Source of the DNA: Myxococcota bacterium
GTDB lineage: Bacteria; Myxococcota_A; Bradymonadia; UBA7976; UBA1532
Length of the DNA stretch: 64,000 bases
Assembly: GCA_963169045.1 (NCBI GenBank)
Contig: CAUJDF010000075.1
Span: 16,689 to 80,688 of the forward strand
Direction of reading: 5' to 3'
Shown: positions 4,689 to 64,000 of the stretch, piece by piece
Layout of the letters: every line of letters begins with the position of its first letter
Position numbering within the stretch: position 1 is the stretch's first letter
Made by a program: the position numbers and the translations under genes
The notes under the pieces: model-generated
What the model was told of the DNA's origin: nothing
The model's database searches: none
The model's input: the letters and a program-made list of their open reading frames with translations, nothing else

Positions 4689-7625
<2,937 letters not shown>

Positions 7626-16189: not shown

Positions 16190-17575
16190 TCAGCGCATAC
16201 CCACTGCCGCCTCGACCTCGTCGGGCGCCTTGGGGACGGCCTCGGTGAGGACCTCGGCGCCGTCGTCGCGGACGAGCACGTCGTCCTCGATGCGGATGCC
16301 GCGGACGTCGGCGAACTGCGCGAGGCGGGCGCGGTCGAGGCGGTCGCCGGCGGCGCGCAGGCGCTCGGGGTCCTCGAGCAGCGCCGGCACCTGGTAGAAG
16401 CCCGGCTCGATCGTCACCGCCATGCCGGGCGAAAGGTCCCGGTCGAGACGCAGGTAGCGCAGTCCGAAGCGGTCGGAGCGCGCGCGGCCCGGCGCGTATC
16501 CGGCGCGGTCGCCGAGGTCCTCCATGTCGTGCACGTCGAGCCCGAGCAGATGCCCGATCCCGTGGGGGAAGAAGAGCGCGTGGACGTCGTCCTCGACCAG
16601 CTCGGCGACGTCGCCGCGCAGGATGCCGAGCGCCACGAGCCCCGCCGCGAGCGCGTGGCACGCCGCCAGGTGGACGTCGCGGTAGCGCGCGCCCGGCCGC
16701 ACCGCCGCGATCGCCGCGCGCTGCGCCTCCAGCACCACCCCGTAGATCTCGCGCTGCGTCGTGCTGAAGCGCCCCGTCACCGGCCACGTCCGCGTCACGT
16801 CCGCGGCCCAGCCGCCGCCGGTCTCGGCGCCGACGTCGGCCAGCAGCAGGTCGCCGTCGCCGAGCGTGTGATGGTGGACGTCGTTGTGGAGCACCTCGCC
16901 GTGCACCGTCACGATCGGGTTGTAGGCGTGCGACATGCCGCGGCCGACGATCTCGGCCTCCATCGCGGCGCGCACCACCCACTCCCGGGCGCCGGCGGTC
17001 GTCGCGCGCATGCCCGCCCGGTGCGCCGCCGCCGTGGCCGCCGCGGCGCGCCGCAGCTCGGACTGCGCCGCGGGGTCGTGCACGAGCCGCAGCGCGATCA
17101 TCGCGTCGAAGAGGACCTCGTCGGTGGGGAAGGGCGGGTCGACGGCGAGCGGGTGCCCGACGTACGCCATGAGCACCTCGGCGGTCGCGGTGTCCGGCGG
17201 CGGCAGCGTCGCGGTGGGGCGCTCGCCGATCGCCGCCGGCAGCTCCGCGAGCGGCCGCACCGGACAGCCCGTCGCCGCCTCGACTGCGTCGGCGCCGGGC
17301 GTCGGTCCGTGCCAGAGCGCGTGGTCCGGCGCGGCCGGCTCGGCGTAGATCGTCGCGTGGTCGCCGTCGACGAGCACGAACGCGCCCGGCAGCGATGCCC
17401 CCGTGAGATAGAGGAAGTGGCTCGAGGCCCGGTACGGGTAGACATTGGCCCGGTAGTTGCGCGGACGCGGCAGTCCCGCGGCGACGAGGGCCGGCCGCCC
17501 GCCGAGCAGCGCCGCGAGACGCCGGCGGCGGGCGACGTACGGCGCGGGATCGTTCGTGTCGGGCAGGCGGATCAT
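16190..17575 (-). CDS. M24 family Xaa-Pro aminopeptidase
   Basis: Metal-ligand motifs DVGAE...D and HGIGHLLGLDVHD, plus IEPGFY and IRIEDD. Start moved to ATG 17573-17575 (MIRLPDT). Confidence 0.85.
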   Translation of the reverse strand: MIRLPDTNDPAPYVARRRRLAALLGGRPALVAAGLPRPRNYRANVYPYRASSHFLYLTGASLPGAFVLVDGDHATIYAEPAAPDHALWHGPTPGADAVEAATGCPVRPLAELPAAIGERPTATLPPPDTATAEVLMAYVGHPLAVDPPFPTDEVLFDAMIALRLVHDPAAQSELRRAAAATAAAHRAGMRATTAGAREWVVRAAMEAEIVGRGMSHAYNPIVTVHGEVLHNDVHHHTLGDGDLLLADVGAETGGGWAADVTRTWPVTGRFSTTQREIYGVVLEAQRAAIAAVRPGARYRDVHLAACHALAAGLVALGILRGDVAELVEDDVHALFFPHGIGHLLGLDVHDMEDLGDRAGYAPGRARSDRFGLRYLRLDRDLSPGMAVTIEPGFYQVPALLEDPERLRAAGDRLDRARLAQFADVRGIRIEDDVLVRDDGAEVLTEAVPKAPDEVEAAVGMR

Positions 17576-17631
17576 TGCGGGTCCTTTCGTCGTCCCACCA
17601 AGATGGAGGCGCATTCTATGCGGGAGGACTC

Positions 17632-18603
17632 ATGAAGCGTATCGCGGTGCTGACGAGCGGAGGCGACGCGCCGGGCATGAACGCGGCCATCCGGGCGGTC
17701 ACGCGCGCGGCCCAGGAGAGGGGCTGGGACGTCCTCGGCGTCGAGGGCGGCTTCGCGGGCCTCATGGCGGGCCGGATGCGGGCGCTCGGCGCCCGAGACG
17801 TCGGCGGCATCATCGAGCGGGGCGGCACCATCCTCGGCACCGCCCGCGCCCCGGAGTTCAAGACGCCCGAGGGCCGGCAGCGAGCGGTGCACGAGCTCGG
17901 CGCCCACGACGTCGACGCGGTGGTCGTCATCGGCGGCAACGGCTCGCAGACCGGCGCCCACGCCCTCTGGAAGGAGGGCGTGCCCGTCGTCGGCGTCGCC
18001 TCGACCATCGACAACGACCTGCTCGGCTCCGACATCACCATCGGCGTCGACACGGCCCTCGACGTGGCGCTCGAGAACATCGACCGCCTCAAGGTGACGG
18101 CGTCGTCGCACCAGCGCGCCTTCCTCGTCGAGGTGATGGGGCGCGACTGCGGTTACCTCGCGGTGGTCGCGGGCATCGCCGGCGGCGCCGAGGCGGTGGT
18201 GATCCCCGAGGTGGAGACCTCGCCGGACCGCGTCGCCGAGGAGCTCGCCGACGCCTACCGGCGGGGCAAGGCGCACGCGCTCGTCGTGGTCGCCGAGGGC
18301 GCCAGCTGCAACGCGAGCACGCTGGGGGCGCACTTCAAGGCGCACAAGGAGCGCATCGGCTTCGACCTGCGCGTGACCATCCTCGGCCACGTGCAGCGGG
18401 GCGGGCACCCCGGCGCCTTCGACCGCCTGCTCGCCAGCCGCCTCGGCGCCGGCGCCGTCGACGCGCTCGCCCGCGGCGAGCAGGGCGTCCTCGTCGGCCT
18501 CGTCCGGGGCCAGGTGGGCACCACGCCCCACGACGAGATCGTCGGCCGCACGAAGCCGCTCGACCTCGAGCTCTTCCGCCTCGCGCAGGTGCTGGCCAGC
18601 TGA
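17632..18603 (+). CDS. pfkA: ATP-dependent 6-phosphofructokinase
   Basis: MKRIAVLTSGGDAPGMNAAIRAV, IGGNGS, STIDNDL, MGRDCGYLA. SD GGGAGGA upstream of ATG 17632. Confidence 0.9.
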   Translation: MKRIAVLTSGGDAPGMNAAIRAVTRAAQERGWDVLGVEGGFAGLMAGRMRALGARDVGGIIERGGTILGTARAPEFKTPEGRQRAVHELGAHDVDAVVVIGGNGSQTGAHALWKEGVPVVGVASTIDNDLLGSDITIGVDTALDVALENIDRLKVTASSHQRAFLVEVMGRDCGYLAVVAGIAGGAEAVVIPEVETSPDRVAEELADAYRRGKAHALVVVAEGASCNASTLGAHFKAHKERIGFDLRVTILGHVQRGGHPGAFDRLLASRLGAGAVDALARGEQGVLVGLVRGQVGTTPHDEIVGRTKPLDLELFRLAQVLAS

Positions 18604-28221: not shown

Positions 28222-28966
28222 GCAGCTCGGCCAGCGCCGCGTACAGGTCGGCGCGCATCGCCGGCGGGATGGCGTGGCGCACGCCGGGATAGGCGCGCAG
28301 CGTGACGTCCGCGCCGGCGGCGCGCAGGGCCTTCACCGTCTCGTCGCCGGCGGCGAACGGAATGACGTCGTCGGCCTCGCCGTGGAACGCGCGCACGGGC
28401 ACCGACGGGGCGCGCGCCGGACGAAGGGACGCGGGCAGCGCGCCGGCGACGGGCAGGGCGGCGGCGACGGCGTCCGGGTGGTGGGCGGCCACCGCGAAGC
28501 TCAGGATGCCGCCCTGGGAGAAGCCGGTGATCACGGGCTTGCCGCGCGTGGGCCGGTGCGCGGCGAGCCAGCGGGCGAGCTCGGCCAGCTTCGCCGCGCT
28601 CTCGCGGATGCCCGCCTCCCGCGCGGGATCGTCGGGCACGGGCGGCAGCTTCGCCACCGGGAACCACGCGTGGCCGCGGCCGCGCGGCGTCGGGCCCCGC
28701 GGCGCCACGACGCGCGCGGCGAAGGGCAGCTCCTCGAGGAGGCGGACGAAGCGCTCCGGGCGATCGCCGAGGCCGTGCACCGCGATGACGAGGGGCAGCG
28801 TGTCCTCGGGGCGCCCGCCGGCGGTGACGCGCTCGACGTACTCGAGGGGAGCGGGCGCGTCGGCGGACGGCGGCGTCGGAGCGGCGCCGCCGCCGGCGTC
28901 GGCGAGGCGGCACGCGGAGACGAGGAGGAGCCACAGCGACGTCACGAGGGGGCGCATGGGCGGCAT
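28214..28966 (-). CDS. lipoprotein alpha/beta-hydrolase (phospholipase/carboxylesterase family)
   Basis: C-terminal 250 aa of the artefactual 2070-aa ORF. Lipobox LLLVSAC, nucleophile elbow GFSQGG, catalytic Asp/His context (HGEADDVIP, GVRHAI). Confidence 0.8.
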   Translation of the reverse strand: MPPMRPLVTSLWLLLVSACRLADAGGGAAPTPPSADAPAPLEYVERVTAGGRPEDTLPLVIAVHGLGDRPERFVRLLEELPFAARVVAPRGPTPRGRGHAWFPVAKLPPVPDDPAREAGIRESAAKLAELARWLAAHRPTRGKPVITGFSQGGILSFAVAAHHPDAVAAALPVAGALPASLRPARAPSVPVRAFHGEADDVIPFAAGDETVKALRAAGADVTLRAYPGVRHAIPPAMRADLYAALAELLR

Positions 28967-29038
28967 CGTATCGGAACGAGTTTGCGGGCGTCTCCACGGC
29001 GGTCGCACACTGAGCCGGTTCGGTGGACGGGGGAGACG

Positions 29039-32011
29039 ATGCGGACCTTCAGACGCGCGTGGGGCCCGGCGCTGGGGTTGTTCGTCGCCGCTTGCGCGGC
29101 CGAGGACGGCGTGTCTTCGGGCGGCGCCGGTGGCGGCGGGGCGGCGCCCGTGCGCGACGCCTCGGTGACACGTCCCGGTGACGCGGGACCGGCCGCGGAC
29201 GCGGCGCCCCCGGTCGTCGACCCCGACGGCGCCCCGGCGGACCCCGACGCGGCGCCCGGCTGCGAGCGAGACGACGCCTGCGCCGAGGGCGAGTGGTGTC
29301 AGGGCGGGGGCTGCGTCGCCCGGCCGGCGGGCGGCTGTCGCGCCGACGCGGACTGCGCGGCGGGCGAGACGTGCGCCGACGACCGCTGCGGGCCGCGCAT
29401 CCTCCAGTGTGTCGAGGACGCGGACTGCGACGCGGGCGAGTCCTGCGCCGACGGCACGTGCGTGGCCGCCGCGCCGCGCTGTGCGGGCGACGCCGACTGC
29501 GCGCCCGGACTCCGCTGCGTCGACGGCGCATGTACGCCGTCGGTGGCGGGCTGCGCGGGCGACGCGGACTGCGGGGCGGGCGAGGCGTGCCGGCAAGGCG
29601 CGTGCGTCCCCGGCTGCATGGAGCCGGCGGCGTGCGGCGAAGGCCTGGTCTGCGCCGGCGGTGCCTGCGTGCCGCCGTGCGCCGGCGACGACGGCTGCCC
29701 GGACGGCGAGGTCTGCCGCGCCGGCCTCTGCGCGCCGTCCTGCGACGCGGGCTGCGGCGACGGCCTGGTCTGCGACGGCGGCGCCTGCGTGCCGCCGTGC
29801 GCCGGCGACGACGGCTGCCCGGACGGCGAGGTCTGCCGCGCCGGCCTCTGCGCGCCCGCCTGCGTCGTCGACGCCGACTGCGGCGCCGGCCTCTGCCGCG
29901 ACGGCGCCTGCGGCCCCGCCGAGTGCGCCGACGACGCCGGATGCGCCGCCGACGCGCGCTGCGAGGCGGGGCGCTGCGTCCCGCGCTGCCCGCTCGGCCC
30001 CGGGCCGTCCTGCGGCGACGACGGCGTGCTCTATGTCTGCGACGTCGACGGCCCCCGCGCGCTCGAGGTCTGCGCCCACGGCTGCGAGGTCGACCGCTGC
30101 CGCCCGCCGCCCTGCGCGGACGACGCCGGCTGCCCCGCCGGCCGGACCTGCGCCGGCGGCCTCTGCAGCCCCGTGCCCGGGAGCGCGTGCGACGCGCCGG
30201 TCCGCCTCGACCACCTCGGCGAGTACCGCGGCTCGACGCTGCGGGCGCCCGCCGCGACCCGCGGGACGTGCGGCGGCGACGCGCCCGAGGCCGCCTTCGT
30301 GCTCGACCCCGCGCTCGGACCCGTGTGCCTCAGCACCGCCGGGTCCGCCTTCGATACGGTGCTCTACCTGCGCGGGACCTGTGACGATCCGGCATCCGAA
30401 TTCTCTTGCAACGACGACCGACCCGAGGTCGCGCCGCAGTCGCAGGTCTTCATCCACCCGTTCGACAGCGCGCCGATCGTCTTCCTCGACGGCGTCGCCG
30501 CCGACGCCGCGGGCGACTACGTCCTGACGGTGAGCGCCGGGGCGTGCGGCGCGCCGCCGCCGGCCTGCCCTGGGGGCGACGGCCTGCACTGCGGCGACGG
30601 CGCCGACCGGCCGCGCGGCACGCTCTTCTGGTGCGCCGCGGGCGCCTGGGCGCCCGTCGAGGTCTGCGTCCACGGCTGCGAGCGCCTCGCGGACGTCGAC
30701 GACCGCTGCCGCGCCGAGCCTCCGCCGGGCTGCGTCGCCGACGCCGACTGCGCCGACGGCGAGCGCTGCCTCGACGGCGCCTGCCAGCCGGGCTGCGCCG
30801 CCGACGCGGAGTGCCCCGCCGGCCACCTGTGCCTCGGCGGGCGCTGCGTCCCGGCCCCGCGCTGCGACGACGACGCGGACTGCATCGCCGGCGAGCGCTG
30901 TCTCGAGGGCGCCTGCGTCGTCGCGCCGCCGTCCTCCTGCGACCGCCCGGCGCCCATCGGCGACTTCGGCGTGTTCCGCGGGACGACCGCCGGCGCGCCG
31001 TCCGCCGTGAGCGGCACCTGCGCCGGCGCCGGCCCCGAGGTCGTCTTCGCCCTCGACCCCGCGCTCGGGCCCGTCTGCCTGAGCACCGCGGGGTCGGTCG
31101 TCGACACGGTCCTGCACGTCCGCAGCGACTGCGGCGCGCCGGCCTCCGAGCTCGCCTGCAACGACGACACGGCCGGCCTCGGCCTCGCCTCGCGCGTCGA
31201 CGTGGCGGCCGGCGCCGGCCTCGCCTACGTCTTCGTCGACAGCTTCGGCGCGCCGGGCGGCGCCTTCTCGCTCGACGTCTCGCCGGGCCCGTGTGGGGCC
31301 GGTCCGGGCGGCGGCTGCGCCGACGCGATCCCGCTGCCCGCGGGCGGGGGCATCATGCAGGGCACCACCGACGGCCGCGCCAACGCGCTCGCAGGACGAT
31401 GCGGCGGCGGGGCGGCGCCCGACATCGTCTACACGCTCCGCCTCGACGAGCGATCCGACGTCGCCGTCGAGGTCGTCGGCTTCGACACGGTGCTGTACCT
31501 CCGCGCGGCCTGCGCCGACGCCGCCACCGAGCTCGGCTGCAACGACGACAGCGATCCGCCCGGCGGCTTCGGATCCGGCCTCTTCGGCACGCTCGAAGCG
31601 GGTCTCTACTTCGTCGTCGTCGACGGGTACGGCGTCAACGGCGGCCCCTTCACGTTGAGCGTCGACGTCGCCGCCGTGGGGGCGGGCTGCGCCGACGGCG
31701 AGCTGCGCCTCGCCGACGGCGTCGACGCGACCGAGGGCCGCGTCGAGGTCTGCCACCAGGGCGAGTGGGGGACGGTGTGCGACGACGGCTGGGACGACGC
31801 CGACGCACGCGCCGTCTGCCGCCAGCTGGGGCTGCCCGATGCCGACGCCGTCGCCCTTTCGTTCGCGGGCTTCGGCCCCGGCGAGGGGGCCATCTGGCTC
31901 GACAACGTCGCCTGCGGCGGCGCCGAGGCGCGCCTCGATCAGTGCCCCCACAACGGCTGGGGCATCCACAACTGCGGTCACTTCGAGGACGCCGGCGTCG
32001 TCTGCCAGTGA
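29039..32011 (+). CDS. large lipoprotein: Cys-rich (C-x3-C-x2-G-x2-C-x2-G-x-C) repeats, three ~120-aa TC..G..PE../FDTVLYLR/CNDD modules, C-terminal SRCR (scavenger receptor cysteine-rich) domain
   Basis: ATG 29039 (MRTFRRAWGPALGLFVAAC, lipobox). SRCR signature RVEVCHQGEWGTVCDDGWDDADARAVCRQLG...IWLDNVACGGAEARLDQCPHNGWGIHNCGHFEDAGVVC. Confidence 0.85.
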   Translation: MRTFRRAWGPALGLFVAACAAEDGVSSGGAGGGGAAPVRDASVTRPGDAGPAADAAPPVVDPDGAPADPDAAPGCERDDACAEGEWCQGGGCVARPAGGCRADADCAAGETCADDRCGPRILQCVEDADCDAGESCADGTCVAAAPRCAGDADCAPGLRCVDGACTPSVAGCAGDADCGAGEACRQGACVPGCMEPAACGEGLVCAGGACVPPCAGDDGCPDGEVCRAGLCAPSCDAGCGDGLVCDGGACVPPCAGDDGCPDGEVCRAGLCAPACVVDADCGAGLCRDGACGPAECADDAGCAADARCEAGRCVPRCPLGPGPSCGDDGVLYVCDVDGPRALEVCAHGCEVDRCRPPPCADDAGCPAGRTCAGGLCSPVPGSACDAPVRLDHLGEYRGSTLRAPAATRGTCGGDAPEAAFVLDPALGPVCLSTAGSAFDTVLYLRGTCDDPASEFSCNDDRPEVAPQSQVFIHPFDSAPIVFLDGVAADAAGDYVLTVSAGACGAPPPACPGGDGLHCGDGADRPRGTLFWCAAGAWAPVEVCVHGCERLADVDDRCRAEPPPGCVADADCADGERCLDGACQPGCAADAECPAGHLCLGGRCVPAPRCDDDADCIAGERCLEGACVVAPPSSCDRPAPIGDFGVFRGTTAGAPSAVSGTCAGAGPEVVFALDPALGPVCLSTAGSVVDTVLHVRSDCGAPASELACNDDTAGLGLASRVDVAAGAGLAYVFVDSFGAPGGAFSLDVSPGPCGAGPGGGCADAIPLPAGGGIMQGTTDGRANALAGRCGGGAAPDIVYTLRLDERSDVAVEVVGFDTVLYLRAACADAATELGCNDDSDPPGGFGSGLFGTLEAGLYFVVVDGYGVNGGPFTLSVDVAAVGAGCADGELRLADGVDATEGRVEVCHQGEWGTVCDDGWDDADARAVCRQLGLPDADAVALSFAGFGPGEGAIWLDNVACGGAEARLDQCPHNGWGIHNCGHFEDAGVVCQ
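29642..29857. repeat. near-identical ~96-bp segment repeated with a 120-bp period (recent duplication of one Cys-repeat unit)
   Basis: 29642-29737 and 29762-29857 differ at only a handful of positions. Both encode [31 protein letters not shown]. Confidence 0.9.
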
Positions 32012-39383: not shown

Positions 39384-41438
39384 TTACGGCGCGAGGCGGG
39401 GCGTCTCGGGGAGGCGGGCGGCGATCTCGTCGAACGACGCGTCGGCCGCGGGGGCGAGGGCGGCCGCATCGCCGGTGGGGCCGAGGGCGATCGGGAGGGC
39501 GCGCAGGTCGTCGGGCAGCACGAAGGCGGCGGCGGCGGAGGCGCGCGGGTCGGGCGGGGGACCGGGGCTGTAGAGCACGTCGACGGTACGCGCGCCGAGG
39601 TCCCGCGCCAGCGCGAGCACCGGGCGCAACTCGGACCACGGCACGCGACGGTCGACGGCGAGCACGAGGTCGGGCGGGTCGCCCTCGGCGATGCGGGCGG
39701 CGAGGGCCTGCGCGACGACGGCACGGCCGGCCTCGGAGGCGAGCGCCGCGCGCGCCGCGACGCGGACGCCGTCGAGCGACACGTCGCCGCGGCCGATCTG
39801 CAGCGTGGGGCCGACGCGCGCCGGTCCGGCACCCTCGCCGGCGGGCGGGTCGAGGCCGCGCCAGAGGGAGAAGCGCCCGGCGAGCTCGTCCCACAGCGGC
39901 GCGCGCTCGCGGGCGACCACGGCGACGAGGCCGGCCGCGCCGAGGAGGAGCGCGGCGACGGTGCCGAGGCGCGGGCGGCGGGCGCGGGCGAGGGCGACGG
40001 CCACCGAAGCCGCGAGCGAGACGGCGAGCGCCAGGCGGGCGCCCTCGGCGGCGACGAGCGCGTCGGCGCGCGCGCCGCGGGCCAGGCCGTCGCCCCAGAT
40101 CCCCGCCGTCGCCGCCTCGTGCCGCACGACCACCGCCGCCGCGAGCAGCACCACCGCCCCCGGGGCGCTCCGGCCGAGCGCGAGCGCCGCCGCCGCGAGC
40201 CCCGCGACCACGAGCGCCCCGGGATCGAGCGTGGCCGCGGCCAGCGCGAGGAGGGCGACGCCCGCCGCGATCCGCGCGGTGCGCGGCGGCGGCGCGGGAG
40301 GGGCGGGCCCCGCGAAGGCCCGTCCGGCGAGGACGGCGGCGGCGAGACCGAGGCCGAGCCACGCGTTCGCGAGCGACTCGGCGAGGCCGACATGGAAGAT
40401 CACGAAGCGTTGCGCCGCGTCGCTGGCGGCGACGGCGCGCATCGTCGCCGCGAAGCCCGCCGCGGCGCCGAGCAGGCCGGCGACCGCCGGGGCCACCGAC
40501 CACACCGGCCAGCGCAGGGCGAGCGCCGCGAGCGCGACCGGGACCGGCGCCAGCAGGCCACCCTCGCGGAGCCAGGCGCGCGGGTCCGACGCGCCGTGGA
40601 AGCCCAGCGCGACGAGCGTCGCGACGATCCCCGCCGTCGCGAGGAGCCGCGCCGGCACCCGGGGTCGCCGCCCGAACGCGGCGTCGCCCGCGGCCACGAA
40701 GGCGGCGACGTCGGCCGGCCGGTCGGCGGGCTCGCGGGCGAGGCTCCGGGCCACGAACGCCTCGACCTCGGCGGCGACCCCCCCCACGGGCGGCGGCGCT
40801 CCGGTGGCCACCGTGTGCAGCACCGCGCCGGGATCGTCGCCGGCCCACGGCGGCCGCCCCGCCAGGAGGTCGTAGAGCACGGCGGCGAGGCCGTAGACGT
40901 CGGTGCGGACGTCGGCGGGCGCCCCCCACCATCGCTCCGGCGCCAGGTACGCCGGCGTCCCGACGACCGCGCCGGACCGCGACGCGTCGCCCTCGGCGCG
41001 GCCGAGCCCGAAGTCGAGGACGCGCACGCGCCCCGACTCGTCGAGCAGCAGGTTCGCGGGCGACAGGTCGCGGTGCAGGACCCCTGCGGCGTGGGCAGCG
41101 GCCACGACCTCGGCGGCGCCGCGGACGAGCCGCCACGCCTCGGCCGGGGGCACCGGGCCACGGCCCGCGAGGCTCGCGCCGCGGACGCGCTCCAGCACGA
41201 GCGCCGCGCGCCCGTCCGCCGTGGTCGTGGTGCCGTGGAGGCGCGGCACGCCGGGGTGACCGACGCGCGAGAGCAGCCTCGCCTCGCGCTCGATGCGCGC
41301 CGCCTCGCCGTCGCGCGGGATCTTCAGCGCGACCGGCCGCCCGCCGGCGTCGACCGCCGCCCACACGCGCGCGGCGCCGCCCTCGCCGAGCAGGCCCTCG
41401 ACCACGTAGCCGGGCACCCGCGGCGGCGCCTCCGTCAC
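39384..41438 (-). CDS. Ser/Thr protein kinase fused to a polytopic membrane region and a C-terminal ExbD/TolR-like domain
   Basis: Its GTG start overlaps the upstream stop (GTGA). Kinase motifs GEGGAARV, VALK, HRDLSPANLL, DFG, YLAPE. Multiple Ala/Leu-rich TM helices. C-terminal LVLAVDRRVPWSELRPVLALARDLGARTVDVL resembles the ExbD periplasmic domain. Confidence 0.85.
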   Translation of the reverse strand: MTEAPPRVPGYVVEGLLGEGGAARVWAAVDAGGRPVALKIPRDGEAARIEREARLLSRVGHPGVPRLHGTTTTADGRAALVLERVRGASLAGRGPVPPAEAWRLVRGAAEVVAAAHAAGVLHRDLSPANLLLDESGRVRVLDFGLGRAEGDASRSGAVVGTPAYLAPERWWGAPADVRTDVYGLAAVLYDLLAGRPPWAGDDPGAVLHTVATGAPPPVGGVAAEVEAFVARSLAREPADRPADVAAFVAAGDAAFGRRPRVPARLLATAGIVATLVALGFHGASDPRAWLREGGLLAPVPVALAALALRWPVWSVAPAVAGLLGAAAGFAATMRAVAASDAAQRFVIFHVGLAESLANAWLGLGLAAAVLAGRAFAGPAPPAPPPRTARIAAGVALLALAAATLDPGALVVAGLAAAALALGRSAPGAVVLLAAAVVVRHEAATAGIWGDGLARGARADALVAAEGARLALAVSLAASVAVALARARRPRLGTVAALLLGAAGLVAVVARERAPLWDELAGRFSLWRGLDPPAGEGAGPARVGPTLQIGRGDVSLDGVRVAARAALASEAGRAVVAQALAARIAEGDPPDLVLAVDRRVPWSELRPVLALARDLGARTVDVLYSPGPPPDPRASAAAAFVLPDDLRALPIALGPTGDAAALAPAADASFDEIAARLPETPRLAP

Positions 41439-42949
41439 GGCCGCCGCAGCTCGAAGGCGCGGATGAGCTCGTAGAGGTGGGAGCGCGCGAGGTCGAGCCG
41501 CCGCGCCGCCTCGGTGACGTTCCACCCCGCCTCGCCGAGCGCCTCGAGCAGCAGGCGGCGCTGGAACGCGCGCGTCGCGCCGGCGAACGTCGCCGCCTCC
41601 GCCGCGGTCGACGCGCCGGGGAAGAGGTGCGCCGGCTCGACCTGCGCCGCGCCCTGCGCGCGGATGAGGCCCGCCTCGACGACGTTGGCGAGCTGCCGCA
41701 CGTTGCCCGGCCAGTCGGCGGCGGCGAGCGCGGCCACCGCCGATGGCGACAGGCGCGCGCGCGGCAGGCCGTGCCGCTTCACCGCGCGGTCGAGCAGCGC
41801 CCCGGCGATGGGCGCGATGTCGGCGCGACGCGCGTCGAGGCCCGGCAGCCGGACGGGCAGCACCGCCAGGCGCCAGTACAGGTCCTCGCGAAACGTCCGC
41901 GCGGCGACCGCCTCCTCGAGCGCGGCGTTCGTCGCGGCGACGATGCGCACGTCGGCCTCGAGCGGCTTCGTGCCACCGAGCCGGAAGTAGCGGCGACTCT
42001 GCAGGAACTGCAGCAGCTTGGCCTGGCTCGGCAGCGGCAGCTCTCCGATCTCGTCGAGGAACAGCGTGCCGCCGGCGGCGGCCTCGACCTTGCCCTCGAC
42101 GCGGCGGTCGGCCGCGGAGTGGGCGCCCTTCTCGGCGCCGAACAGCTCGCTCTCGACGAGCGTGTCGGGCAGCGCCGCGCAGTTGAGCTCGATGAACGGG
42201 CCGCGGGCGCGCCGGCTCGACGCGTGGATCGTGCGCGCCAGCTCCGTCTTGCCCGCGCCGGACGGCCCGAGCAGCAGCACGGTCACGTCGAGCGGGGCCA
42301 CGAGCGCCACCCCGCGCAGGACGTCCGCCAGCGCCTCGGATCGGCCGGCGAGCGCGTCGGCGCCCTGCAGCTGCGCGCGCCACGGCGCCGTCGGATCGGG
42401 ACCCGCCTCGCCGAGCCGGTCGGCCCAGGGCGCCACGGCGCGCGCGAAGTCCTCGAGCAGCCGGCGATCGGCCTCGGAGAACGGGCCGGGCGCCGGCCGC
42501 TCGGCCACGTACACCGCGCCGGCCCCGGCGATCGGCGCGCACATCACCGCGGCGAGGCGGCCGGCGGCCACCGACCGCCGCGACGCGAACCGCGGATCCT
42601 CATGGGCGACGGCGGTCGAGATGGTCTCGCCGCGCGCCAGCGCCTCGCGCACGATGCCTCGCGACAGCACCGCGTCGACCTCGTCGGGGTCGCAGGCGTG
42701 CGCGAGCAGGAAGCGCGGCGCGCCCGGCTCCCCCAGGGCGAGGTAGCCCTGGCGCGCGCCCACCGCGGCCACCACGCGGCGCAGCGCCTCCTCGAGCAGC
42801 GGCCGCGGATCCTCTGCGCCGGCCAGCGCGAACAGGCCCCGGTACAGGTCCCGCTCCGCGGTGAGTCGGGCGTCGGCGCGTGCTTCGGTCACGTCCGGCA
42901 GGATCGCCGCGGCCGACCCGGGGGTCAATTCGGGCGAGTGACGCGTCAC
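41435..42949 (-). CDS. GAF-domain NtrC-family AAA+ transcriptional activator with a degenerate GAFTGA loop (GAHSAA)
   Basis: Its GTG start overlaps the upstream stop (GTGA). GAF-like N-terminus, Walker A GPSGAGKT, Walker B LFLDEIG, R-finger region, HTH NVTEAARRLDLARSHLYELI. Confidence 0.85.
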   Translation of the reverse strand: MTRHSPELTPGSAAAILPDVTEARADARLTAERDLYRGLFALAGAEDPRPLLEEALRRVVAAVGARQGYLALGEPGAPRFLLAHACDPDEVDAVLSRGIVREALARGETISTAVAHEDPRFASRRSVAAGRLAAVMCAPIAGAGAVYVAERPAPGPFSEADRRLLEDFARAVAPWADRLGEAGPDPTAPWRAQLQGADALAGRSEALADVLRGVALVAPLDVTVLLLGPSGAGKTELARTIHASSRRARGPFIELNCAALPDTLVESELFGAEKGAHSAADRRVEGKVEAAAGGTLFLDEIGELPLPSQAKLLQFLQSRRYFRLGGTKPLEADVRIVAATNAALEEAVAARTFREDLYWRLAVLPVRLPGLDARRADIAPIAGALLDRAVKRHGLPRARLSPSAVAALAAADWPGNVRQLANVVEAGLIRAQGAAQVEPAHLFPGASTAAEAATFAGATRAFQRRLLLEALGEAGWNVTEAARRLDLARSHLYELIRAFELRRP

Positions 42950-54422: not shown

Positions 54423-55933
54423 TCGTCGACCTCTCCCGCACGCCGCCGCCCGCGCCGCCGACCTGCGACGTGTGCGTGATCGGGTCCGGGCCCGGCGGGG
54501 CCACCGCCGCGCGCCTGCTCGCCGAGGCCGGCCGCGACGTGGTGGTGCTCGAGGAGGGCCCGGACCGCACCGGCGCCGAGCTGACGCAGCGCGACGGCGA
54601 GATGTACGACCAGCTGTACATGGAGCGCGGCGGGCGCGCGACCGACGACCTGGCCGTGGCCGTGCTGCAGGGGCGTGCGCTCGGCGGCGGCGCGGTCATC
54701 AACGCGTGCGACGTGGTGCCCATCCCCGACGGCGTCCTGGCGCACTGGCGGGCGAAGCACGGCCTCGCCGAGCTGACGCCCGAGGCGCTCGCGCCCCACC
54801 TCGAGGCGGCGCTGGCCGACCTGTCGGCGAACCCGATCGGGGAGCACCAGCTCAACCTCGCCAACCGGCTCCTGCGCCAGGGCGCCTCGGCGCTCGGGCT
54901 GCGCGGCGAGGTCATGCGCCACAACCGCGTCGGCTGCGCCGGCCTCGGCACGTGCCTCATCGGCTGCCCCGCCAACGCCAAGCGCAACCCGCGCTTCGTC
55001 GCCATCCCCGCGGCCATCGCCGCCGGGGCGCGCTTCTTCGTGCGGGCGCGGGCCGTGCGCATCGAGGACGGCGGCCGGGAGATCAAGCGCGTCCGCGTCC
55101 GCACGCTCGACGACCGCGGCTACCACGAGCGCGGCGAGTGGGAGGTGCGCGCGCGCACCGTCATCGTCGCCGCGAACGCCGTCGCCACCCCCCAGCTGCT
55201 GTTGCGCTCCGGCCTCGGCAACGGACACGTCGGCCGCCACCTCATGCTGCAGCCGCAGCTGCCCGTGACGGCGATGTTCGACGAGCGCATCGACGCGTTC
55301 CGCGGCATCCCGCAGGCCTATGCGATCACCGCCGGCGAGGTGGAGGACGATCCGCAGCACGGCCTGTGGGGCTTCCGCATCGAGGCGATCATGGGCACGC
55401 CGGGCATCTCGGCGTCGCTGCTGCCCGGCGGCGGCGCCGAGGGCAAGCGCCTGATGGGTCGCTACGCGTACATGGCCTCGGCGCTGCTGCTCGTCCCGGA
55501 CGCGCCCTCGGGCGAGGTCGAGCTGTGGGGCGACGGGCGCCCGCGCATCCGCTACACGCAGCGCCCCGATCACAAGGCGCGGCTGCGCGACGCGGTGCGC
55601 ATGGCGGCGCGCGTCTACTTCGCCGCCGGTGCGCGCGAGGTGTGGGTGCCGGTCTCGCCGCCGATCGTGTTGCGGCCGGGCGACGATCTGTCCGCCGTCG
55701 ACGGCCTCGACTTCGCGCCGGCCCGCGTGCCGCTCATCTCCGCGCACCAGCAGGGCACCGTGCGCATGGCGCCCTCGGCGAAGGCGGGCGCCGCCGATCC
55801 CGACGGTCGTCTGTTCGGCGCGCGCGATGTGTTCATCTTCGACTCGTCGCTGTTCCCTTCGAGCGCGTCGAGCCACACGATGACCCCGATCCTGACCATG
55901 GCGCGCTGGCTCGGCGCGCGGCTCGCGGTCTGA
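54419..55933 (+). CDS. GMC-family FAD-dependent oxidoreductase
   Basis: FAD-binding DVCVIGSGPGGATAARLLAEAG. GMC C-terminal region (HQQGTVRMA..., FDSSLFPSS). Confidence 0.9.
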   Translation: MIVDLSRTPPPAPPTCDVCVIGSGPGGATAARLLAEAGRDVVVLEEGPDRTGAELTQRDGEMYDQLYMERGGRATDDLAVAVLQGRALGGGAVINACDVVPIPDGVLAHWRAKHGLAELTPEALAPHLEAALADLSANPIGEHQLNLANRLLRQGASALGLRGEVMRHNRVGCAGLGTCLIGCPANAKRNPRFVAIPAAIAAGARFFVRARAVRIEDGGREIKRVRVRTLDDRGYHERGEWEVRARTVIVAANAVATPQLLLRSGLGNGHVGRHLMLQPQLPVTAMFDERIDAFRGIPQAYAITAGEVEDDPQHGLWGFRIEAIMGTPGISASLLPGGGAEGKRLMGRYAYMASALLLVPDAPSGEVELWGDGRPRIRYTQRPDHKARLRDAVRMAARVYFAAGAREVWVPVSPPIVLRPGDDLSAVDGLDFAPARVPLISAHQQGTVRMAPSAKAGAADPDGRLFGARDVFIFDSSLFPSSASSHTMTPILTMARWLGARLAV

Positions 55934-56002
55934 ACCGCGCCGTGCGGATGCGCCGTCGCCGAGGCCTCGCGTGAGGCGCGCCGGCGCGGGGCGGTCGCGC
56001 CC

Positions 56003-56182
56003 GTGACCGCCACGTCGCTCCTCGGGTGTGTCGTCCAGGCGTTGACCGCGGTCGGGGCGTTCGTCGCGCTCCACCGCCTGGCGGAGTTGCCGGGCTGGGC
56101 GGCGCTCGTGGCGGCGGTGCCGGCGAGCATGGTCGCGACGTGGCTGCTCATGGCCCTGTTCGCCGTCCTGCGGCGCGGCTGA
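56003..56182 (+). CDS. possible small (59-aa) two-TM membrane protein, below the ORF-track size cut-off
   Basis: My translation from GTG 56003: VTATSLLGCVVQALTAVGAFVALHRLAELPGWAALVAAVPASMVATWLLMALFAVLRRG, then stop. No SD seen. Confidence 0.25.
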   Translation: MTATSLLGCVVQALTAVGAFVALHRLAELPGWAALVAAVPASMVATWLLMALFAVLRRG

Positions 56183-56276
56183 CGGGCGCTCGCCGTCGGT
56201 CGACTGCGCGCCCGGGTTGTCGCGGTCGTGCCTTTGCGTGTATCGGGGAGTGTCCGGACACACAGGGGGTCGCTCG

Positions 56277-59363
<3,087 letters not shown>

Positions 59364-59424
59364 CGCCGCGCGTGCACCGCTCCCCACCTCCCGCGTAGAC
59401 TCGCCCCGACTGGGGTGAGGTCCG

Positions 59425-62400
59425 ATGAAACAGCGACGAGTGGTGGGCTGGGCCCTGTGGGCCCTGCTGGCGATCGGGTGCGCCGAGGACGCGAGCGAGG
59501 GCGGTGACGCGGCGGACGCCGCCGCCGACGGCGCGACGGGGCTCGGTGACGCGAGCGCCGACGCGGCGGGCGGTGCCGGCGGCATGGGCGGCGCGGGCGG
59601 CGGAGACGCGGCGCTCGCCGACGCCGCGCCCGTGGACGCGGCCCGCGACGCCGCGCCGCCCGACGCGGCGCCGTTGCCCGACGGCGCGCCGCCCACGCCG
59701 GTCGAGTCGTGCGAGGACGCCTGCGCCCGCTACGCGGCCTGCGACCGCCTCGAGGAGCTCTTCGGCAGCGAGGAGGCGTGCCTCACTCGCTGCGCGCGCG
59801 TCACGCGCGACGGCCAGCGCCCAGGCTTCTGGTGGGACTGCCTCGGCGTCGAGTCGTGCAACCTCGTCCACCTGTGTCGTCCGCCGCAGCCCGAGCCGCT
59901 CGCCTGCGACGCGATCTGCGCCCGCGCCGAGGGCTGCGGCGTCGAGCTGCCCGACTGCGAGGCCGCCTGCGCCGAGTCGGGCGAGCCCTTCCGGCTCTGC
60001 GGCGAGGCCGTCGCCGAGGCGTGCGACGCCGCCGCGCTCGTCGAGTGCCTCGGCACCAACGTCTACACGAGCTGCGACCGCGCCTGCGACGAGGCCGTCC
60101 GTTGCGACGCGGTGCCCGCCGAGGGCTGCCTGCTCGGCTGCGTCGGCGCGCTCGCCGACGCGGACCCGCTCTTCCGCCTGCGCGCGAGCCAGCGCAACGC
60201 CTGCATCGCCCGCGCGAACCAGGACTGCGGCCAGATCGCCGCCTGCATCGATCCGGCCGAGCCCGGCGAGCCGCCGCTCGTGACGCCCGACCAGTACTGC
60301 GCGCGCTGGGCCGGCTGCGGCTTCGACGACTTCATCCCTTGCGCCGCCGTCCTCGAGCGCTTCGGGCGCGATGCGGCGTTCCTCACCTGCGGCCTCGAGC
60401 AGATGGAGCGCGGGTGCCCGCGCGATCCCGGCCCGCTCCTCGAGGGCTGCGAGAACGGCGGCGTCGACCCGCGCTTCGAGTCGTGCAACCGCCTTTGCGA
60501 GGCGCGGGGCGTCTGCGGCCTGCTCGAGGGCGGCCCCGTCGCCCGCGCCGAGTGCGTGCAGAACTGCACCGGCGGCCAGAACGCCGACCCGGACGAGCTC
60601 GAGCGCGCCTCAGCCTCGCTGGTCTGCGGCGGCGTCGACCGGTGCGACGCGTTCGTCGCGTGCCTCGCGGAGACGGGGCCGGCCGTCGAGTGCCGCGACC
60701 ACTGCGCGCGCCTCGCCGTGTGCGGCCTCGCCGACGCCGACTGCCAGGCCGCGTGCGACCGCGACTGGGCCCGCGACCGGCAGGCGGCGACGCGCGCCTG
60801 CGTCGCCGAGGCCGCCGACTGCGCGGCGATCGCCGCCTGCGCGCCGCCGCCCGCCGCCCCCTGCGCCGCCTACTGCGCCCGCGCCGTCGAGTGCGGCCTC
60901 GAAGCGGCGCCCGGCTGCGAAGCGCGCTGCGACGATCGGCACTTCGCCGCGCCGTCGCCGGAGCTCCTCTACGACGCCTGTGTCGTCTCGGCGCCGGTCT
61001 GCCGCGCCGAGAACCGCAACGATCCCGCGGCGGCCAACTGCCGCACGCGCCCGGACGACGGCGCGGCGTGCCTCGCGTTCTGCCGCTTCGCCGCCGATTG
61101 CGGCGGCGGCGCCGACCTCGGCGCGTGCCTGCGTGAGTGCGGCCGCGGCCTCGTCGGCGACGACGGCCTGCGCTTCCTGAGCGGCCGCGACTGCCTGCGC
61201 CGCCAGCCCGCCGACGCCGCGTGCGGCGCGCTCGACGCGTGCATCCCCGACGGCGTCGACGCCGACTGCCCTGCGTTCTGCGCCGGCGCCGCCGCGTGCG
61301 GCGTCGAGCTCACCGAGTGCGAGGGCGCCTGCGCCGAGGACCCGCTGTCGCGCCTGCGCGTCCTGCAGCGGGCCGAGTGCCTCGGCGACGCCGGCGAGGA
61401 CTGCGGCGCCGTCCGCGCCTGCCTCGTGCCCGCCGTGGCGCCGCCGGACCCGGACGCCGTGCGCCCCGTCGACGACGCCACCTTCTGCGCCGCCTACGAC
61501 CGCTGCCGCTACGAGGAGTTCTTCGGCCCCTGCGAGAACGCGCTGCGCGAGTTCGCCGCCGATCCCGGCGTGCGCCGCTGCATGTACGACCTCCTCGCCG
61601 GCCAGTGCCCGGCCAACATCGAAGAGGTCTTCATCTGCCTCGAGGGCGGCCAGCCGGCGCCGAGCCCCATCGCCGCGGAGTGCGCCGCGCTCTGCGAGGC
61701 CCAGGCCTTCTGCGGCGACCGCGCCGCCGCCGACCAGGTTGCGTGCCGGCGCGCGTGCGAGGCGCAGATCCCGGCGAACGACCCCGACGCCGTCGCCCGC
61801 ATCGCGCCCCGCATGGCCTGCGCGCAGTCGTGGTCCTGCGCCGATCTGTCGGTGTGCCTCGCGAACAGCAGCCCGCGCGCCGTCTGCGCGGAGCACTGCG
61901 GCCGCCTGGCCGGGTGCGGCGCCGTCGCCGACCGCGCCGTCTGCGAGGCCGCGTGCGACCGCGACTTCGCCCGCCTGCGGCAGTTCCCGTTCCGCGATTG
62001 CGTGCGGCGCGCCGCCGCCTGCGAGGACGTGCGCGCCTGCGCCCCAGCGGCGCCCATCCCGTGTGCCGACGCCTGCGCGGCCCTCGAGGGCTGCGGCCCG
62101 GTGGCGCCCGCCTGCGCCGCCGAGTGCGACGACCAGCACTTCCGCGAGCCGCTCGAGACCGCGCTGCAGGTGGCTTGCATCCTCGGCGCCGAGGCCTGCG
62201 AAGGGGAGGGTGGCATCGCCGCCTGCTTCGAGGATCCGGGGCCCGGCGCCCGCGCCTGCCTCGGCTACTGCCGCGCGATCACCGAGTGCGATCCCGCCGC
62301 CGAACAGTCGCTCGTCGACTGTCTCAACGGCTGTGTCGCGGGTTACGACGACCGCAACGGCCTGCGCTTCGCCGCCGCCGAGGACTGCCTGCGCGCGGTG

Positions 62401-63303
62401 GCGCCGGACGCCGCCTGCGACGCGCTGCGCGCCTGCCTGCCCGACGCGCTGAGCGTCGACTGCGACGCGCACTGCGCCGAGCTCGACGCGTGCCGCGTGC
62501 CCGCCGAGGGCTGCGCCGCCGCGTGCGCCGGCGGCGACGTCTCGCTCGACGAGGGCGGCTGCGTCGCTGACGCCCGCCGCGCCGGCGGCGGCTGCGCAGC
62601 CGTCGCCGTCTGCGTCGGGCACGCGCCCCCGCCCGCGAGCGCGGCGTGCGTCCGCGCCTGCGAGCTGCGCGGGACGTGCGACCGCGAGGTCGACGAGTAC
62701 CTGTGTCGCCTCGACTGCACCCCCGCCCCCGCGGCGCTGCCCGTCCACGTCGCCTGCGCCGAGCTCTTCGACTGTGGCCGCGACCGCGACGCGTGCTTCG
62801 ACCTGCCCGCCGACCGCGACCGCGCCTGCGTCGCCGCCTGCGAAGGCGCCGCCGCGTGCGCCGGTCTGTTCGCCGACGCCGACGCCTGCGCCGCGATGTG
62901 TACCGGCCAGGTGGCGAGCGAGTTGCCGCTGCCGGGCTGGGCCGATGCCATCGGCGCCTGCCTCCGGGGCGCCATCGACGGCGATCGCTGCGACGAGGAC
63001 GCCGCCCGCCAGTGCTTCGAGGTGGGCGTGCGCCTCGGCCTCAACCAGGGCTACGGCCACCACGGCTCGTGCGAGACGTTCAACGCCTGCAACGACGCGC
63101 GCACGTGCGCCGACGCCGCCTGCCGCTTCCACGGCCACGGCCCCGCGCTCTCCTGGGAGGAGGGCCTCTGCATGGACCTGAACATGTCCGTGCCCGGTGG
63201 CATGGACTGCAATCTGTTCGCCCAGCTGCCCAACAACCTGGACGATCAGTGGCAGGGCTTCTGCAACATCCCCGTGGCCTACGACATCGTCTGCCGGCCC
63301 TGA
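59425..63303 (+). CDS. giant Cys-rich lipoprotein made of about 17 tandem 8-Cys modules plus a distinct C-terminal 8-Cys domain; no family recognised
   Basis: ATG 59425 (MKQRRVVGWALWALLAIGC, lipobox). My hand count is 141 Cys in 1292 aa. Module core is C-x3-C-x5-C-x(6-12)-C-x3-C. Two ~390-aa super-repeats at 60298-61484 and 61485-62646. Confidence 0.85.
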   Translation: MKQRRVVGWALWALLAIGCAEDASEGGDAADAAADGATGLGDASADAAGGAGGMGGAGGGDAALADAAPVDAARDAAPPDAAPLPDGAPPTPVESCEDACARYAACDRLEELFGSEEACLTRCARVTRDGQRPGFWWDCLGVESCNLVHLCRPPQPEPLACDAICARAEGCGVELPDCEAACAESGEPFRLCGEAVAEACDAAALVECLGTNVYTSCDRACDEAVRCDAVPAEGCLLGCVGALADADPLFRLRASQRNACIARANQDCGQIAACIDPAEPGEPPLVTPDQYCARWAGCGFDDFIPCAAVLERFGRDAAFLTCGLEQMERGCPRDPGPLLEGCENGGVDPRFESCNRLCEARGVCGLLEGGPVARAECVQNCTGGQNADPDELERASASLVCGGVDRCDAFVACLAETGPAVECRDHCARLAVCGLADADCQAACDRDWARDRQAATRACVAEAADCAAIAACAPPPAAPCAAYCARAVECGLEAAPGCEARCDDRHFAAPSPELLYDACVVSAPVCRAENRNDPAAANCRTRPDDGAACLAFCRFAADCGGGADLGACLRECGRGLVGDDGLRFLSGRDCLRRQPADAACGALDACIPDGVDADCPAFCAGAAACGVELTECEGACAEDPLSRLRVLQRAECLGDAGEDCGAVRACLVPAVAPPDPDAVRPVDDATFCAAYDRCRYEEFFGPCENALREFAADPGVRRCMYDLLAGQCPANIEEVFICLEGGQPAPSPIAAECAALCEAQAFCGDRAAADQVACRRACEAQIPANDPDAVARIAPRMACAQSWSCADLSVCLANSSPRAVCAEHCGRLAGCGAVADRAVCEAACDRDFARLRQFPFRDCVRRAAACEDVRACAPAAPIPCADACAALEGCGPVAPACAAECDDQHFREPLETALQVACILGAEACEGEGGIAACFEDPGPGARACLGYCRAITECDPAAEQSLVDCLNGCVAGYDDRNGLRFAAAEDCLRAVAPDAACDALRACLPDALSVDCDAHCAELDACRVPAEGCAAACAGGDVSLDEGGCVADARRAGGGCAAVAVCVGHAPPPASAACVRACELRGTCDREVDEYLCRLDCTPAPAALPVHVACAELFDCGRDRDACFDLPADRDRACVAACEGAAACAGLFADADACAAMCTGQVASELPLPGWADAIGACLRGAIDGDRCDEDAARQCFEVGVRLGLNQGYGHHGSCETFNACNDARTCADAACRFHGHGPALSWEEGLCMDLNMSVPGGMDCNLFAQLPNNLDDQWQGFCNIPVAYDIVCRP

Positions 63304-63310
63304 CGGCCGG

Positions 63311-64000
63311 TCAGTCGATCGGCATCACGGCGTCGAACAGGGCGCTCGCCGCGTCCTGCAGGCGCCCCTCGTACCAGAAGGCGTAGTCGCCGGGGAGCGG
63401 CGCCAGCGTCGTCTCCTCGAGCAGGTCGTAGACGTCGTCCGGCATGTCGGCGCCGTGCAGCATGCCGAGCGCGAGGGCGCCCGCGCTGCGCTCGAGCAGG
63501 TCGTCGGACGACGCGGCGGCCCGCAGCGGCGCCTCGTCGACGGTCGCGCCGGCCCGCGCATGGCGCGCCAGCGCCAGGACCGCGCTCGCGCGGACGCGCG
63601 CCACCGGATCGCGCGCCGCCGCCTCGAGCGCCGCGGCGGGTCCGCCGGCGAACACGCCCAGCAGCTGCGCCGCCGCGGCGCGCACGCCGGCGTCGCCGTC
63701 GCCCAGCATGCGCAGCCACGTCGGCGTCGCGTCCCGCACCGCCGCGGCGACCGCCCGCTCGGTGTCGACGTCGAAGCCGGGCCGCTCGATCGCCTCGAGC
63801 GAGAACGGCGTCGCGCAGTAGTCGGGCAGCGCGAACGTCGCGAGGTCGCGCAGCAGGCACAGCGCCGCCGCGCGACCCGCCGCCGCCGGCGACGCCGCGA
63901 TGTCGACGAGGCGCGGCACCGCCGCGAGCGTCGCGTCGAACGCGCCGCTCTCGTCGCGGTCCAGCAGCCCGACCTCGAGCGTCGTCGCCGCCTCGCGGGC
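63311..64000 (-). CDS. HEAT-repeat protein; N-terminus lies beyond the window end
   Basis: The frame stays open to base 64000. HEAT/PBS-like repeats (DAGVRAAAAQLLG, DPVARVRASAVLALAR). Confidence 0.7.
   Translation of the reverse strand, partial: AREAATTLEVGLLDRDESGAFDATLAAVPRLVDIAASPAAAGRAAALCLLRDLATFALPDYCATPFSLEAIERPGFDVDTERAVAAAVRDATPTWLRMLGDGDAGVRAAAAQLLGVFAGGPAAALEAAARDPVARVRASAVLALARHARAGATVDEAPLRAAASSDDLLERSAGALALGMLHGADMPDDVYDLLEETTLAPLPGDYAFWYEGRLQDAASALFDAVMPID

Follow-up and report, generated by a model that had tools for sequence, protein, structure and literature searches.

Extracellular stalks stiffened by disulfide-rich tandem repeats are characteristic of eukaryotic surface receptors; bacterial cases are few and little studied. 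Among myxobacteria, the main example is TraA, the stalk of which is beta-structured. In Myxococcus xanthus, the Cys-rich region of TraA, with more than 70 Cys, has been proposed to form a rigid stalk that is stiffened by dozens of disulfides and presents a variable recognition domain (PMC3325183, PMC12045341), and this stalk, the TIGR04201 region, has been described as beta-hairpins (PMC12045341). [quoted passage not shown] Plant alpha-hairpinins are helix-turn-helix peptides with two CXXXC motifs, for several of which a C1-C4 / C2-C3 connectivity has been solved (PMC7191063). Here we describe a gene at 59425..63303 on the forward strand of a 64,000-nucleotide stretch of DNA from a Myxococcota bacterium (contig CAUJDF010000075.1, positions 16,689 to 80,688; hereafter the window), which encodes a Cys-rich lipoprotein of 1292 aa, referred to below as the stalk protein. 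We give about an even chance to the reading that this protein is a lipid-anchored, disulfide-stapled helical stalk presenting an exchangeable C-terminal binding head away from the cell envelope.

The open reading frame (ORF) at 59425-63303 (+), with its stop codon at 63301-63303, is a real gene, as indicated by the ORF list, the homologues and the GC content at third codon positions (GC3). The latter is 0.957 in the ORF frame versus 0.76 and 0.60 in the remaining two frames, which identifies the ORF frame as the coding frame. The identical 1292-aa product was obtained in independent assemblies of three sequencing runs, so the module array described below is not an assembly artefact. An exact count confirmed the 141 Cys in 1292 residues (10.9%) counted by hand in the initial annotation of the window: 1 in the lipobox, 120 in 8-Cys modules, 12 in 6-Cys variants and 8 in the C-terminal domain. 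A Lys-free mature protein was considered as an adaptation and rejected, since other exported proteins of the window, whose mean GC is ~75%, are equally Lys-poor; a low-GC relative has 12 Lys. A scan of 55900-63600 for sigma-70 promoters and intrinsic terminators found none, which is uninformative at such GC.

The N-terminus carries a signal peptide with a lipobox (MKQRRVVGWALWALLAIG/C19, 59425..59481), matched by script with a PROSITE-type lipobox pattern, [LVI..][ASTVI][GAS]-C. G18 and C19 are invariant across 10 aligned homologues, and a canonical L-[AT]-G-C or similar lipobox lies at aa 10-30 in most full-length homologues. From its lipobox, the stalk protein is classed as a bacterial lipoprotein of the Sec/signal peptidase II type, with predicted lipidation. 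Export by twin-arginine translocation was suspected from an 'RR' in the signal peptide and rejected, because homologues do not keep this pair. The Ala/Asp/Gly linker first noted after the lipobox corresponds to a low-complexity tether of 73 residues (aa 20-92, 59482..59700) with 26 Ala, 15 Gly, 12 Asp and 8 Pro. The full-length relatives all open in the same way, their signal peptide and lipobox leading into an acidic/Gly tether of low complexity. The tether is only 25-44% identical among homologues and variable in length, and it is probably disordered or flexible.

The tether is followed by 17 modules, 15 with eight Cys and two six-Cys variants (aa 292-342 and aa 688-738). The eight-Cys modules follow the pattern C-x3-C-x5-C-x(6-12)-C-x3-C-x(9-20)-C-x(5-10)-C-x(5-12)-C. 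Its leading C-x3-C-x5-C was observed 15 times, each time opening an 8-Cys module, compared with 1.6 +/- 1.3 times in shuffled sequences (n=2000, maximum 8), so this spacing is not due to chance. CX3C motifs number 30, two per 8-Cys module. CC and CxxC occur 0 times each, against ~15 +/- 3.4 expected from shuffles of the stalk protein, and CxC is also absent, so that x3 is the minimum Cys spacing. Counts of CxxCH and CxxCxxC are likewise zero, and the protein thus lacks the motifs of a multihaem cytochrome c or an Fe-S protein. These results agree with what had been read from the letters of the sequence at the outset, namely about 17 tandem modules, this order of Cys, and no haem or classical Fe-S spacings.

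Most of the array is built from two copies of a longer unit. Super-repeat A (aa 286-680, 60280..61464), supported by alignment to the second copy and by structure prediction, comprises the 6-Cys module M4 and the 8-Cys modules M5-M9, and super-repeat B (aa 682-1072, 61468..62640), delimited by alignment to A, comprises the 6-Cys M10 and the 8-Cys M11-M15. They are flanked by M1-M3, with 8 Cys each (aa 94-275, 59704..60249), and by M16-M17 (aa 1073-1198, 62641..63018), both assigned by segmentation and by a module hidden Markov model (HMM); all of these features lie on the forward strand. A BLASTP comparison of the stalk protein against itself (subject mode) gave no off-diagonal matches. When the halves were then compared directly, aa 286-680 and aa 682-1077 aligned module by module with 38% identity over 347 aa (E=1e-44), and at the DNA level the copies are 67% identical over 709 nt. 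The ~395-aa super-repeat is therefore a real duplication, and its two copies lie within a few codons of where they had first been placed (60298-61484 and 61485-62646). It occurs once in relatives of ~800-980 aa and twice in those of ~1200-1345 aa, sometimes with a partial extra copy. In an alignment of 32 super-repeat copies, nearly every Cys is invariant at a mean column identity of 43%. Additionally, each module position retains its own identity across homologues, with invariant non-Cys residues specific to the module type (R167, R172, D218-D219 in 'CDDxHF', R269, 'DPLxRLR').

To describe the fold, the 32-copy super-repeat alignment was modelled with AlphaFold2, which gave a mean predicted local distance difference test score (pLDDT) of 92.0, a predicted template modelling score (pTM) of 0.80 and no residue below 50. 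Assignment by DSSP showed the model to be all-alpha without strands, with four short helices of ~5-17 residues in each 8-Cys module. Helix A carries C1-x3-C2, with C3 in the loop after it; helix B begins at or just before C4 and holds C4-x3-C5; helix C ends near C6; and helix D runs from C7 to C8. Only a few residues link one module to the next in the model, and the high pTM across six modules points to a defined inter-module geometry.

The Cys framework was then compared over the whole family. The module HMM found 402 modules in 29 close relatives and 1368 modules in 164 proteins, and in this larger set all eight positions are 99.4-100% Cys, while the remaining stalk sequence is only ~37-56% identical across homologues. 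The apparent losses of a single Cys that we inspected were alignment shifts. By comparison, C1 and C5 are lost jointly in the M4/M10-type 6-Cys modules and in similar ones of P0076 and P0165, and C2 and C4 are lost jointly in the M9-type module of P0009, where a kept C-A-D-D-P-L flank fixes C5 unambiguously. The paired losses fit an antiparallel twin-CX3C staple with C1-C5 as the outer and C2-C4 as the inner bond, and these two disulfides are predicted from variant co-loss with one exception, P0114. In most full-length members the number of Cys is odd, consistent with an even number in addition to the one that carries the lipid anchor. Three ideas of the initial annotation were thereby strengthened: modules that are helical, paired C-x3-C motifs that act as a twin-CX3C staple, and a Cys periodicity that survives proper alignment.

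A protein with 11% Cys, in which CX3C sets the thiols on one helix face, might instead keep its Cys reduced as ligands, and would then be a metal (Cu/Zn) store or a thiol-redox buffer tied to the MopE-motif protein that adjoins it in the window and recurs near its orthologue in three other genomes. A point in favour is Csp1, a copper storage protein that is exported and forms a four-helix bundle lined with Cys. We regard such a role as very improbable here. No Csp/DUF326, metallothionein or any other metal-binding family was matched in Pfam at E<=1. The complete lack of CC, CxC and CxxC noted above (~15 expected for each of CC and CxxC) and the low content of His (0.9%) and Met (0.7%) among the 1292 residues point the same way, and the short helices would not provide a long thiol-lined bundle core. 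Furthermore, Cys loss is strictly pairwise, in the way that disulfide partners should behave, the export signal is a Sec-type lipobox with an unconserved RR pair, and the MopE-motif neighbour is missing beside the paralogues and at one orthologue locus (L007), MopE motifs being common in these genomes. Among the three roles first suggested, a rigid disulfide-stapled surface fibre thus fits the data, and the thiol buffer and the metal sponge are disfavoured by the missing motifs, the scarcity of His and Met, the paired and near-invariant Cys and the lipoprotein export signal.

We examined whether the module belongs to a described family. In Pfam-A and NCBIfam, no match at E<=1 was obtained for the stalk protein, four homologues, the isolated head and nine distant relatives, the lone exceptions being four chance-level matches, far below the cut-off, in two distant relatives. 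One distant relative gave a sub-threshold match to Pet191_N (E=0.044), and no Pfam match to the Tim10/CHCH families was seen. The TraA-type model TIGR04201 and TIGR02232/DUF4215 had no match at E<=1 in the stalk protein or in eight scanned homologues and distant relatives, and PF11617, the model of the MopE motif, had 0 matches in the stalk protein. Saposin-like proteins and the plant 8-Cys-motif proteins (nsLTP, 2S albumin) gave no Pfam match either, and the CC and CxC typical of the latter motif are absent. A PDB sequence search with the whole protein returned nothing, and one with a 32-row super-repeat profile returned a single chance-level match, PUF4 (E=0.14). Foldseek, queried with six modules and not a single one, gave nothing significant in the PDB, these folds included (TMq 0.16 at a best E of 2.6), and with the super-repeat model it gave nothing significant in BFVD. 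Likewise, our literature search found nothing relevant on a bacterial twin-CX3C repeat or a Cys-rich helical repeat of Myxococcota.

Larger sequence collections did contain relatives. A word-indexed search of 5.8 billion proteins yielded 28, all metagenomic; the named ones are called 'hypothetical protein', and the two labels that go past 'bacterium' read 'Myxococcales bacterium'. An exhaustive HMMER search with the super-repeat profile against 1.84 billion representatives of clusters at 50% identity gave 203 clusters at E<=1e-3, 97 of them at E<=1e-30. In the species genomes of GTDB, patterns made from one protein recovered no relatives, the super-repeat copies diverged too far for pattern design, and an alignment of close homologues worked. 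All 13 confirmed loci (13/13) lie in metagenome-assembled genomes (MAGs), for which the informative labels are Myxococcales, Nannocystaceae or Myxococcota, the others being just 'bacterium'. The named family members are thus restricted to uncultured Myxococcota MAGs.

Weaker profile matches are arrays of 7 to ~17 compact modules of ~48 aa, some from low-GC organisms. Examples such as P0126, P0138, P0144, P0145 and P0158 match the super-repeat profile with E of ~1e-9 to 1e-20 and share the framework C-x3-C-x5-C-x(8-10)-C-x3-C-x(9-11)-C-x5-C-x5-C with the stalk protein. They are acidic like the stalk protein, a signal peptide or lipobox is present in several of them, and they are likewise unannotated in Pfam and NCBIfam. 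They differ from it in their near-uniform modules, without the six-module super-repeat, the 6-Cys variants that head it or a distinct head. The 8-Cys module is a real and small family, apparently uncurated, in which the stalk protein belongs to a derived branch with six module types fixed as the ~395-aa super-repeat. The early claim of an undescribed repeat family therefore stands as far as curated Pfam and NCBIfam entries are concerned, but the module is not private to the stalk protein, as the 203 clusters show. In the curated resources and literature searched, the 8-Cys four-helix module, the six-module super-repeat and the head-swapping family appear to be undescribed; exported Cys-rich tandem-repeat stalks as a kind, and the twin-CX3C hairpin as a local staple, are already known.

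The array ends in a C-terminal 8-Cys head, termed type 1, which spans aa 1199-1292 (63019..63300, +) according to the conservation among orthologues. A distinct domain had been recognised here from the start; its beginning, first put at about 63060, is probably near aa 1199 (nt 63019). Its eight Cys lie between Cys1216 and Cys1290, and its invariant motifs are GxGHHGSC, PGGMDC and CNIPVAYD[IV]VC. We distinguished three types of C-terminus in the family. Type 1 is this ~95-aa 8-Cys domain (the window protein, P0002-4 and P0007); type 2 is a ~125-aa domain with the signature 'CNDD ... YYxFVDGF' (P0005, P0006 and P0008-15); and type 3 (P0016-29) consists of an extra helical Cys module, often with a Pro-rich tail, and shows no obvious globular head. 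The stalks of P0005 and P0006 are 58-61% identical to that of the window protein, as are those of the orthologues P0002 and P0003 (61%), yet the heads of P0005 and P0006 are only ~22% identical to the window head, i.e. unrelated. The comparison shows, at the level of sequence, that C-terminal heads are swapped on similar stalks. Among orthologues, in turn, the head is 76-81% identical and the stalk 61% (76-79% versus 56% with Cys excluded). Several genomes hold at least two paralogues with different heads. In single MAGs with two stalk paralogues (L004+L008, L007+L014, L005+L011 and L012+L016), one member of each pair matches through the window head as far as aa 1292, and its partner over the stalk only, to ~aa 1198. 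We consider this combination of a conserved stalk with an exchangeable head, which the initial annotation had overlooked, to be the main clue to function.

From its 'VRLG...' start, '...DIVC' end and 8 Cys, the type-1 head was considered as SRCR-like; this was rejected, as an hhalign comparison of the head alignment with the window's own SRCR domain gave a probability of 0.08 and there was no Pfam match. Homologues of the type-1 head elsewhere are just two fragments, of the same orthologue type. The type-2 head, on the other hand, is homologous to three internal domains (E=1e-13, 1e-12 and 2e-7) of a second large Cys-rich lipoprotein of the window. That gene lies at 28274-32011 (+), with a likely true start near 29006 (MRTFRRAWGPALGLFVAAC). 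Its product has DUF7107-type CxxDxDC repeats, the three 'CNDD...VDGF/YG' domains and a C-terminal SRCR domain (E=2.9e-30). SRCR domains, which normally serve extracellular recognition, are to our knowledge rare in bacteria. The sharing of the type-2 head with a lipoprotein that ends in SRCR suggests that these genomes repeatedly join a Cys-rich repeat body to C-terminal domains of the recognition type, with the heads shuffled among them.

Taken together, the data are consistent with the following arrangement. The lipobox Cys would anchor the protein to the membrane, followed by the tether of ~70 Ala/Gly/Asp/Pro-rich residues and then by ~1100 residues of 17 contiguous four-helix modules. In each module, the hairpin of helices A and B would be stapled by C1-C5 and C2-C4, and two more disulfides among C3, C6, C7 and C8 would lock the remaining loop and helices. 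Because only a few residues separate the modules, the array may act as one stiff, strongly acidic rod and not as beads on a string. The small C-terminal domain, the part most conserved within an orthologue group and exchanged on similar stalks, would be the functional tip, and the whole protein a spacer that keeps this head, as the site where a ligand or partner binds, at a set distance from the envelope. We infer disulfide formation, rigidity, a surface and not a periplasmic location, and binding by the head, the last because the head is both conserved and swapped.

Several observations weigh against such a stalk with a binding head. The type-3 relatives suggest that the array itself may carry the function. 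For the type-1 head, AlphaFold2 modelling from 7 sequences reached a pLDDT of 52 and did not predict a fold, and no Pfam or PDB relative was found. As for the staple, P0114, a distant relative, has a 6-Cys module (aa 362-415) that seemingly lacks C2 and C5, unlike what a simple staple would give, and C3, C6, C7 and C8 are essentially never lost in the 1368 modules, so that co-loss yielded no pairing for them. In addition, the lipobox Cys of several homologues is followed by Asp at +2. In E. coli, Asp at this position causes retention in the inner membrane, a rule that may not be that of these organisms.

The headless relatives lead to an alternative in which the repeat array is itself the functional surface, a polyvalent, highly acidic adhesin or a matrix-envelope scaffold that might bind cations such as Ca2+, minerals, polysaccharide or the surface of prey along its length, with the C-terminal domain as an accessory. 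We consider this unlikely, although several properties fit it. The family-wide pI is ~4.05-4.3 and the net charge of the window protein ~-109; the module types keep their identity and their invariant non-Cys residues across homologues; the type-3 relatives and the compact-module proteins P0126, P0138 and P0145 have no distinct head; and the super-repeat copy number varies from 1 to 2, at times with a partial copy. However, it is the head that is most conserved within orthologues and that distinguishes paralogues of the same genome, known cation-binding motifs were not detected in Pfam or NCBIfam, and the invariant non-Cys residues could equally be packing contacts between modules.

A stiff, membrane-anchored rod could also work inside the envelope, as a periplasmic spacer or brace that spans or measures the periplasm, its C-terminal domain or Pro-rich tail touching peptidoglycan or the other membrane, by analogy with Lpp, which spans the periplasm in enterobacteria. 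The 17-module array would likely exceed a typical periplasm, the alternative heads are common to an SRCR-containing exported protein, and a two-fold variation in copy number between relatives is odd for a ruler. These points make a periplasmic role improbable in our view, even with the N-terminal lipoprotein anchor, the rigid modular body of the AlphaFold2 model, the Pro-rich tails that end some relatives and the Asp at +2 in several homologues counted in its favour.

In the genomic neighbourhood, the gene directly upstream (56217..59363, +), which ends 62 nt before the start codon of the stalk protein, encodes a MopE-motif lipoprotein (PF11617, E=2.7e-24, 6 stretches) with a (GGAGG)n tether, seven motif repeats detected by regular expression and a Gly-rich C-terminal half of ~480 aa; it is a possible partner. 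A MopE-motif protein is found within ~3 kb of the type-1-head orthologue in three other genomes (L003/L009, L004 and L005). Its position and orientation vary between the orthologue loci, and it is absent beside the paralogues with other heads and at the L007 orthologue locus, the L006 contig being too short for a judgement. Genes with MopE motifs are frequent in these genomes, three of them in the window and its relatives; a second large MopE-motif (PF11617) Cys-rich protein of the window lies at 4689-7625 (-). The sequence data thus hint at a head-specific partnership, which may merely be residual synteny. The proposed link to the MopE-motif neighbour is weak: the neighbour recurs near the closest orthologues only, with variable position and strand, and is absent beside paralogues.

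The other neighbours in the window are mutually unrelated: a PhoD-like phosphatase, a cytochrome c, a pectate-lyase-like protein, a GMC oxidoreductase and a HEAT-repeat protein. A conserved operon was considered and rejected, as the neighbourhoods of P0014, P0002 and P0169 are wholly different and only the MopE-motif neighbour recurs, at the closest orthologues. Near the orthologue P0002, a cluster of multihaem-cytochrome-like genes (L003, 18977-23846) includes one in which collagen-like repeats accompany a domain of the MtrC/MtrF type, suggesting proteins of extracellular electron transfer in that MAG. The contig with the paralogue P0014 carries, near it, a gene with TIR_2 and NADase_transloc (L001, 1558-2838), possibly a defence or toxin NADase, and a lysyl-oxidase-domain gene (L001, 18659-20233). 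In a low-GC lineage (L017, 4793-9296), the compact-module protein P0169 lies downstream, on the same strand, of an 847-aa protein with a weak match to a BPI/LBP/CETP lipid-binding domain and of a 211-aa protein without known identity. Two further ORFs of the window, 40119-41474 (+) and 15290-17635 (+), have an unusual GC content at first codon positions, 0.95 and 0.85, and no Pfam match; they may encode low-complexity proteins rich in Gly and Ala, or the frames may be miscalled.

That a new repeat family from uncultured Myxococcota exists is solid and well supported, and a new fold is probable by the model. More tentatively, and with somewhat less than an even chance by our estimate, the 8-Cys module may found an undescribed all-alpha, four-disulfide repeat fold from which uncultured Myxococcota and some other lineages build rigid stalks of tens of nanometres with interchangeable recognition heads, a bacterial and helical counterpart of the eukaryotic EGF/LDLR/TNFR-type Cys-rich stalks, possibly for contact-dependent social or predatory recognition. 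If true, this would give a new protein-repeat family and fold and a way into the surface biology of Nannocystaceae-like myxobacteria that are uncultured, and could provide protein engineering with a rigid, modular, protease-resistant scaffold of tunable length. It also raises the question of how a bacterial envelope achieves the correct pairing of ~70 disulfides. The finding settles no long-standing question.

We finally compared the stalk protein with the described systems. Helices A and B of each module follow the same staple logic as the small Tim/CHCH twin-CX3C proteins. These, however, are single eukaryotic hairpins of ~10 kDa that are oxidised by Mia40, whereas the hairpin of the stalk protein is half of an 8-Cys four-helix module, present 17-fold in a bacterial lipoprotein. 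The staple proposed for C1, C2, C4 and C5 is also that of the alpha-hairpinins, which are small, mostly cationic plant peptides with four Cys only. In contrast, the stalk modules are strongly acidic, have four more invariant Cys and two more helices, and show no detectable sequence similarity to them. With TraA, the stalk protein shares the phylum, the lipid-anchored position in the envelope, the long Cys-rich tandem repeats and a variable head on a conserved stalk. The two have no sequence relationship (0 matches to TIGR04201 in NCBIfam), and the beta-hairpin stalk of TraA differs from the all-alpha AlphaFold2 model obtained here. The polarity is reversed as well: TraA has an N-terminal head, a PA14-like domain unlike the head of the stalk protein, and a C-terminal MYXO-CTERM anchor, whereas the stalk protein has an N-terminal lipobox and a C-terminal head. 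The missing TIGR04201 match, the alpha fold and the reversed polarity make TraA an analogy and not a family member. On the model, the stalk protein would represent a second, unrelated solution to that of TraA, built from helical 8-Cys modules that each contain a twin-CX3C staple, and topped by swappable C-terminal heads.

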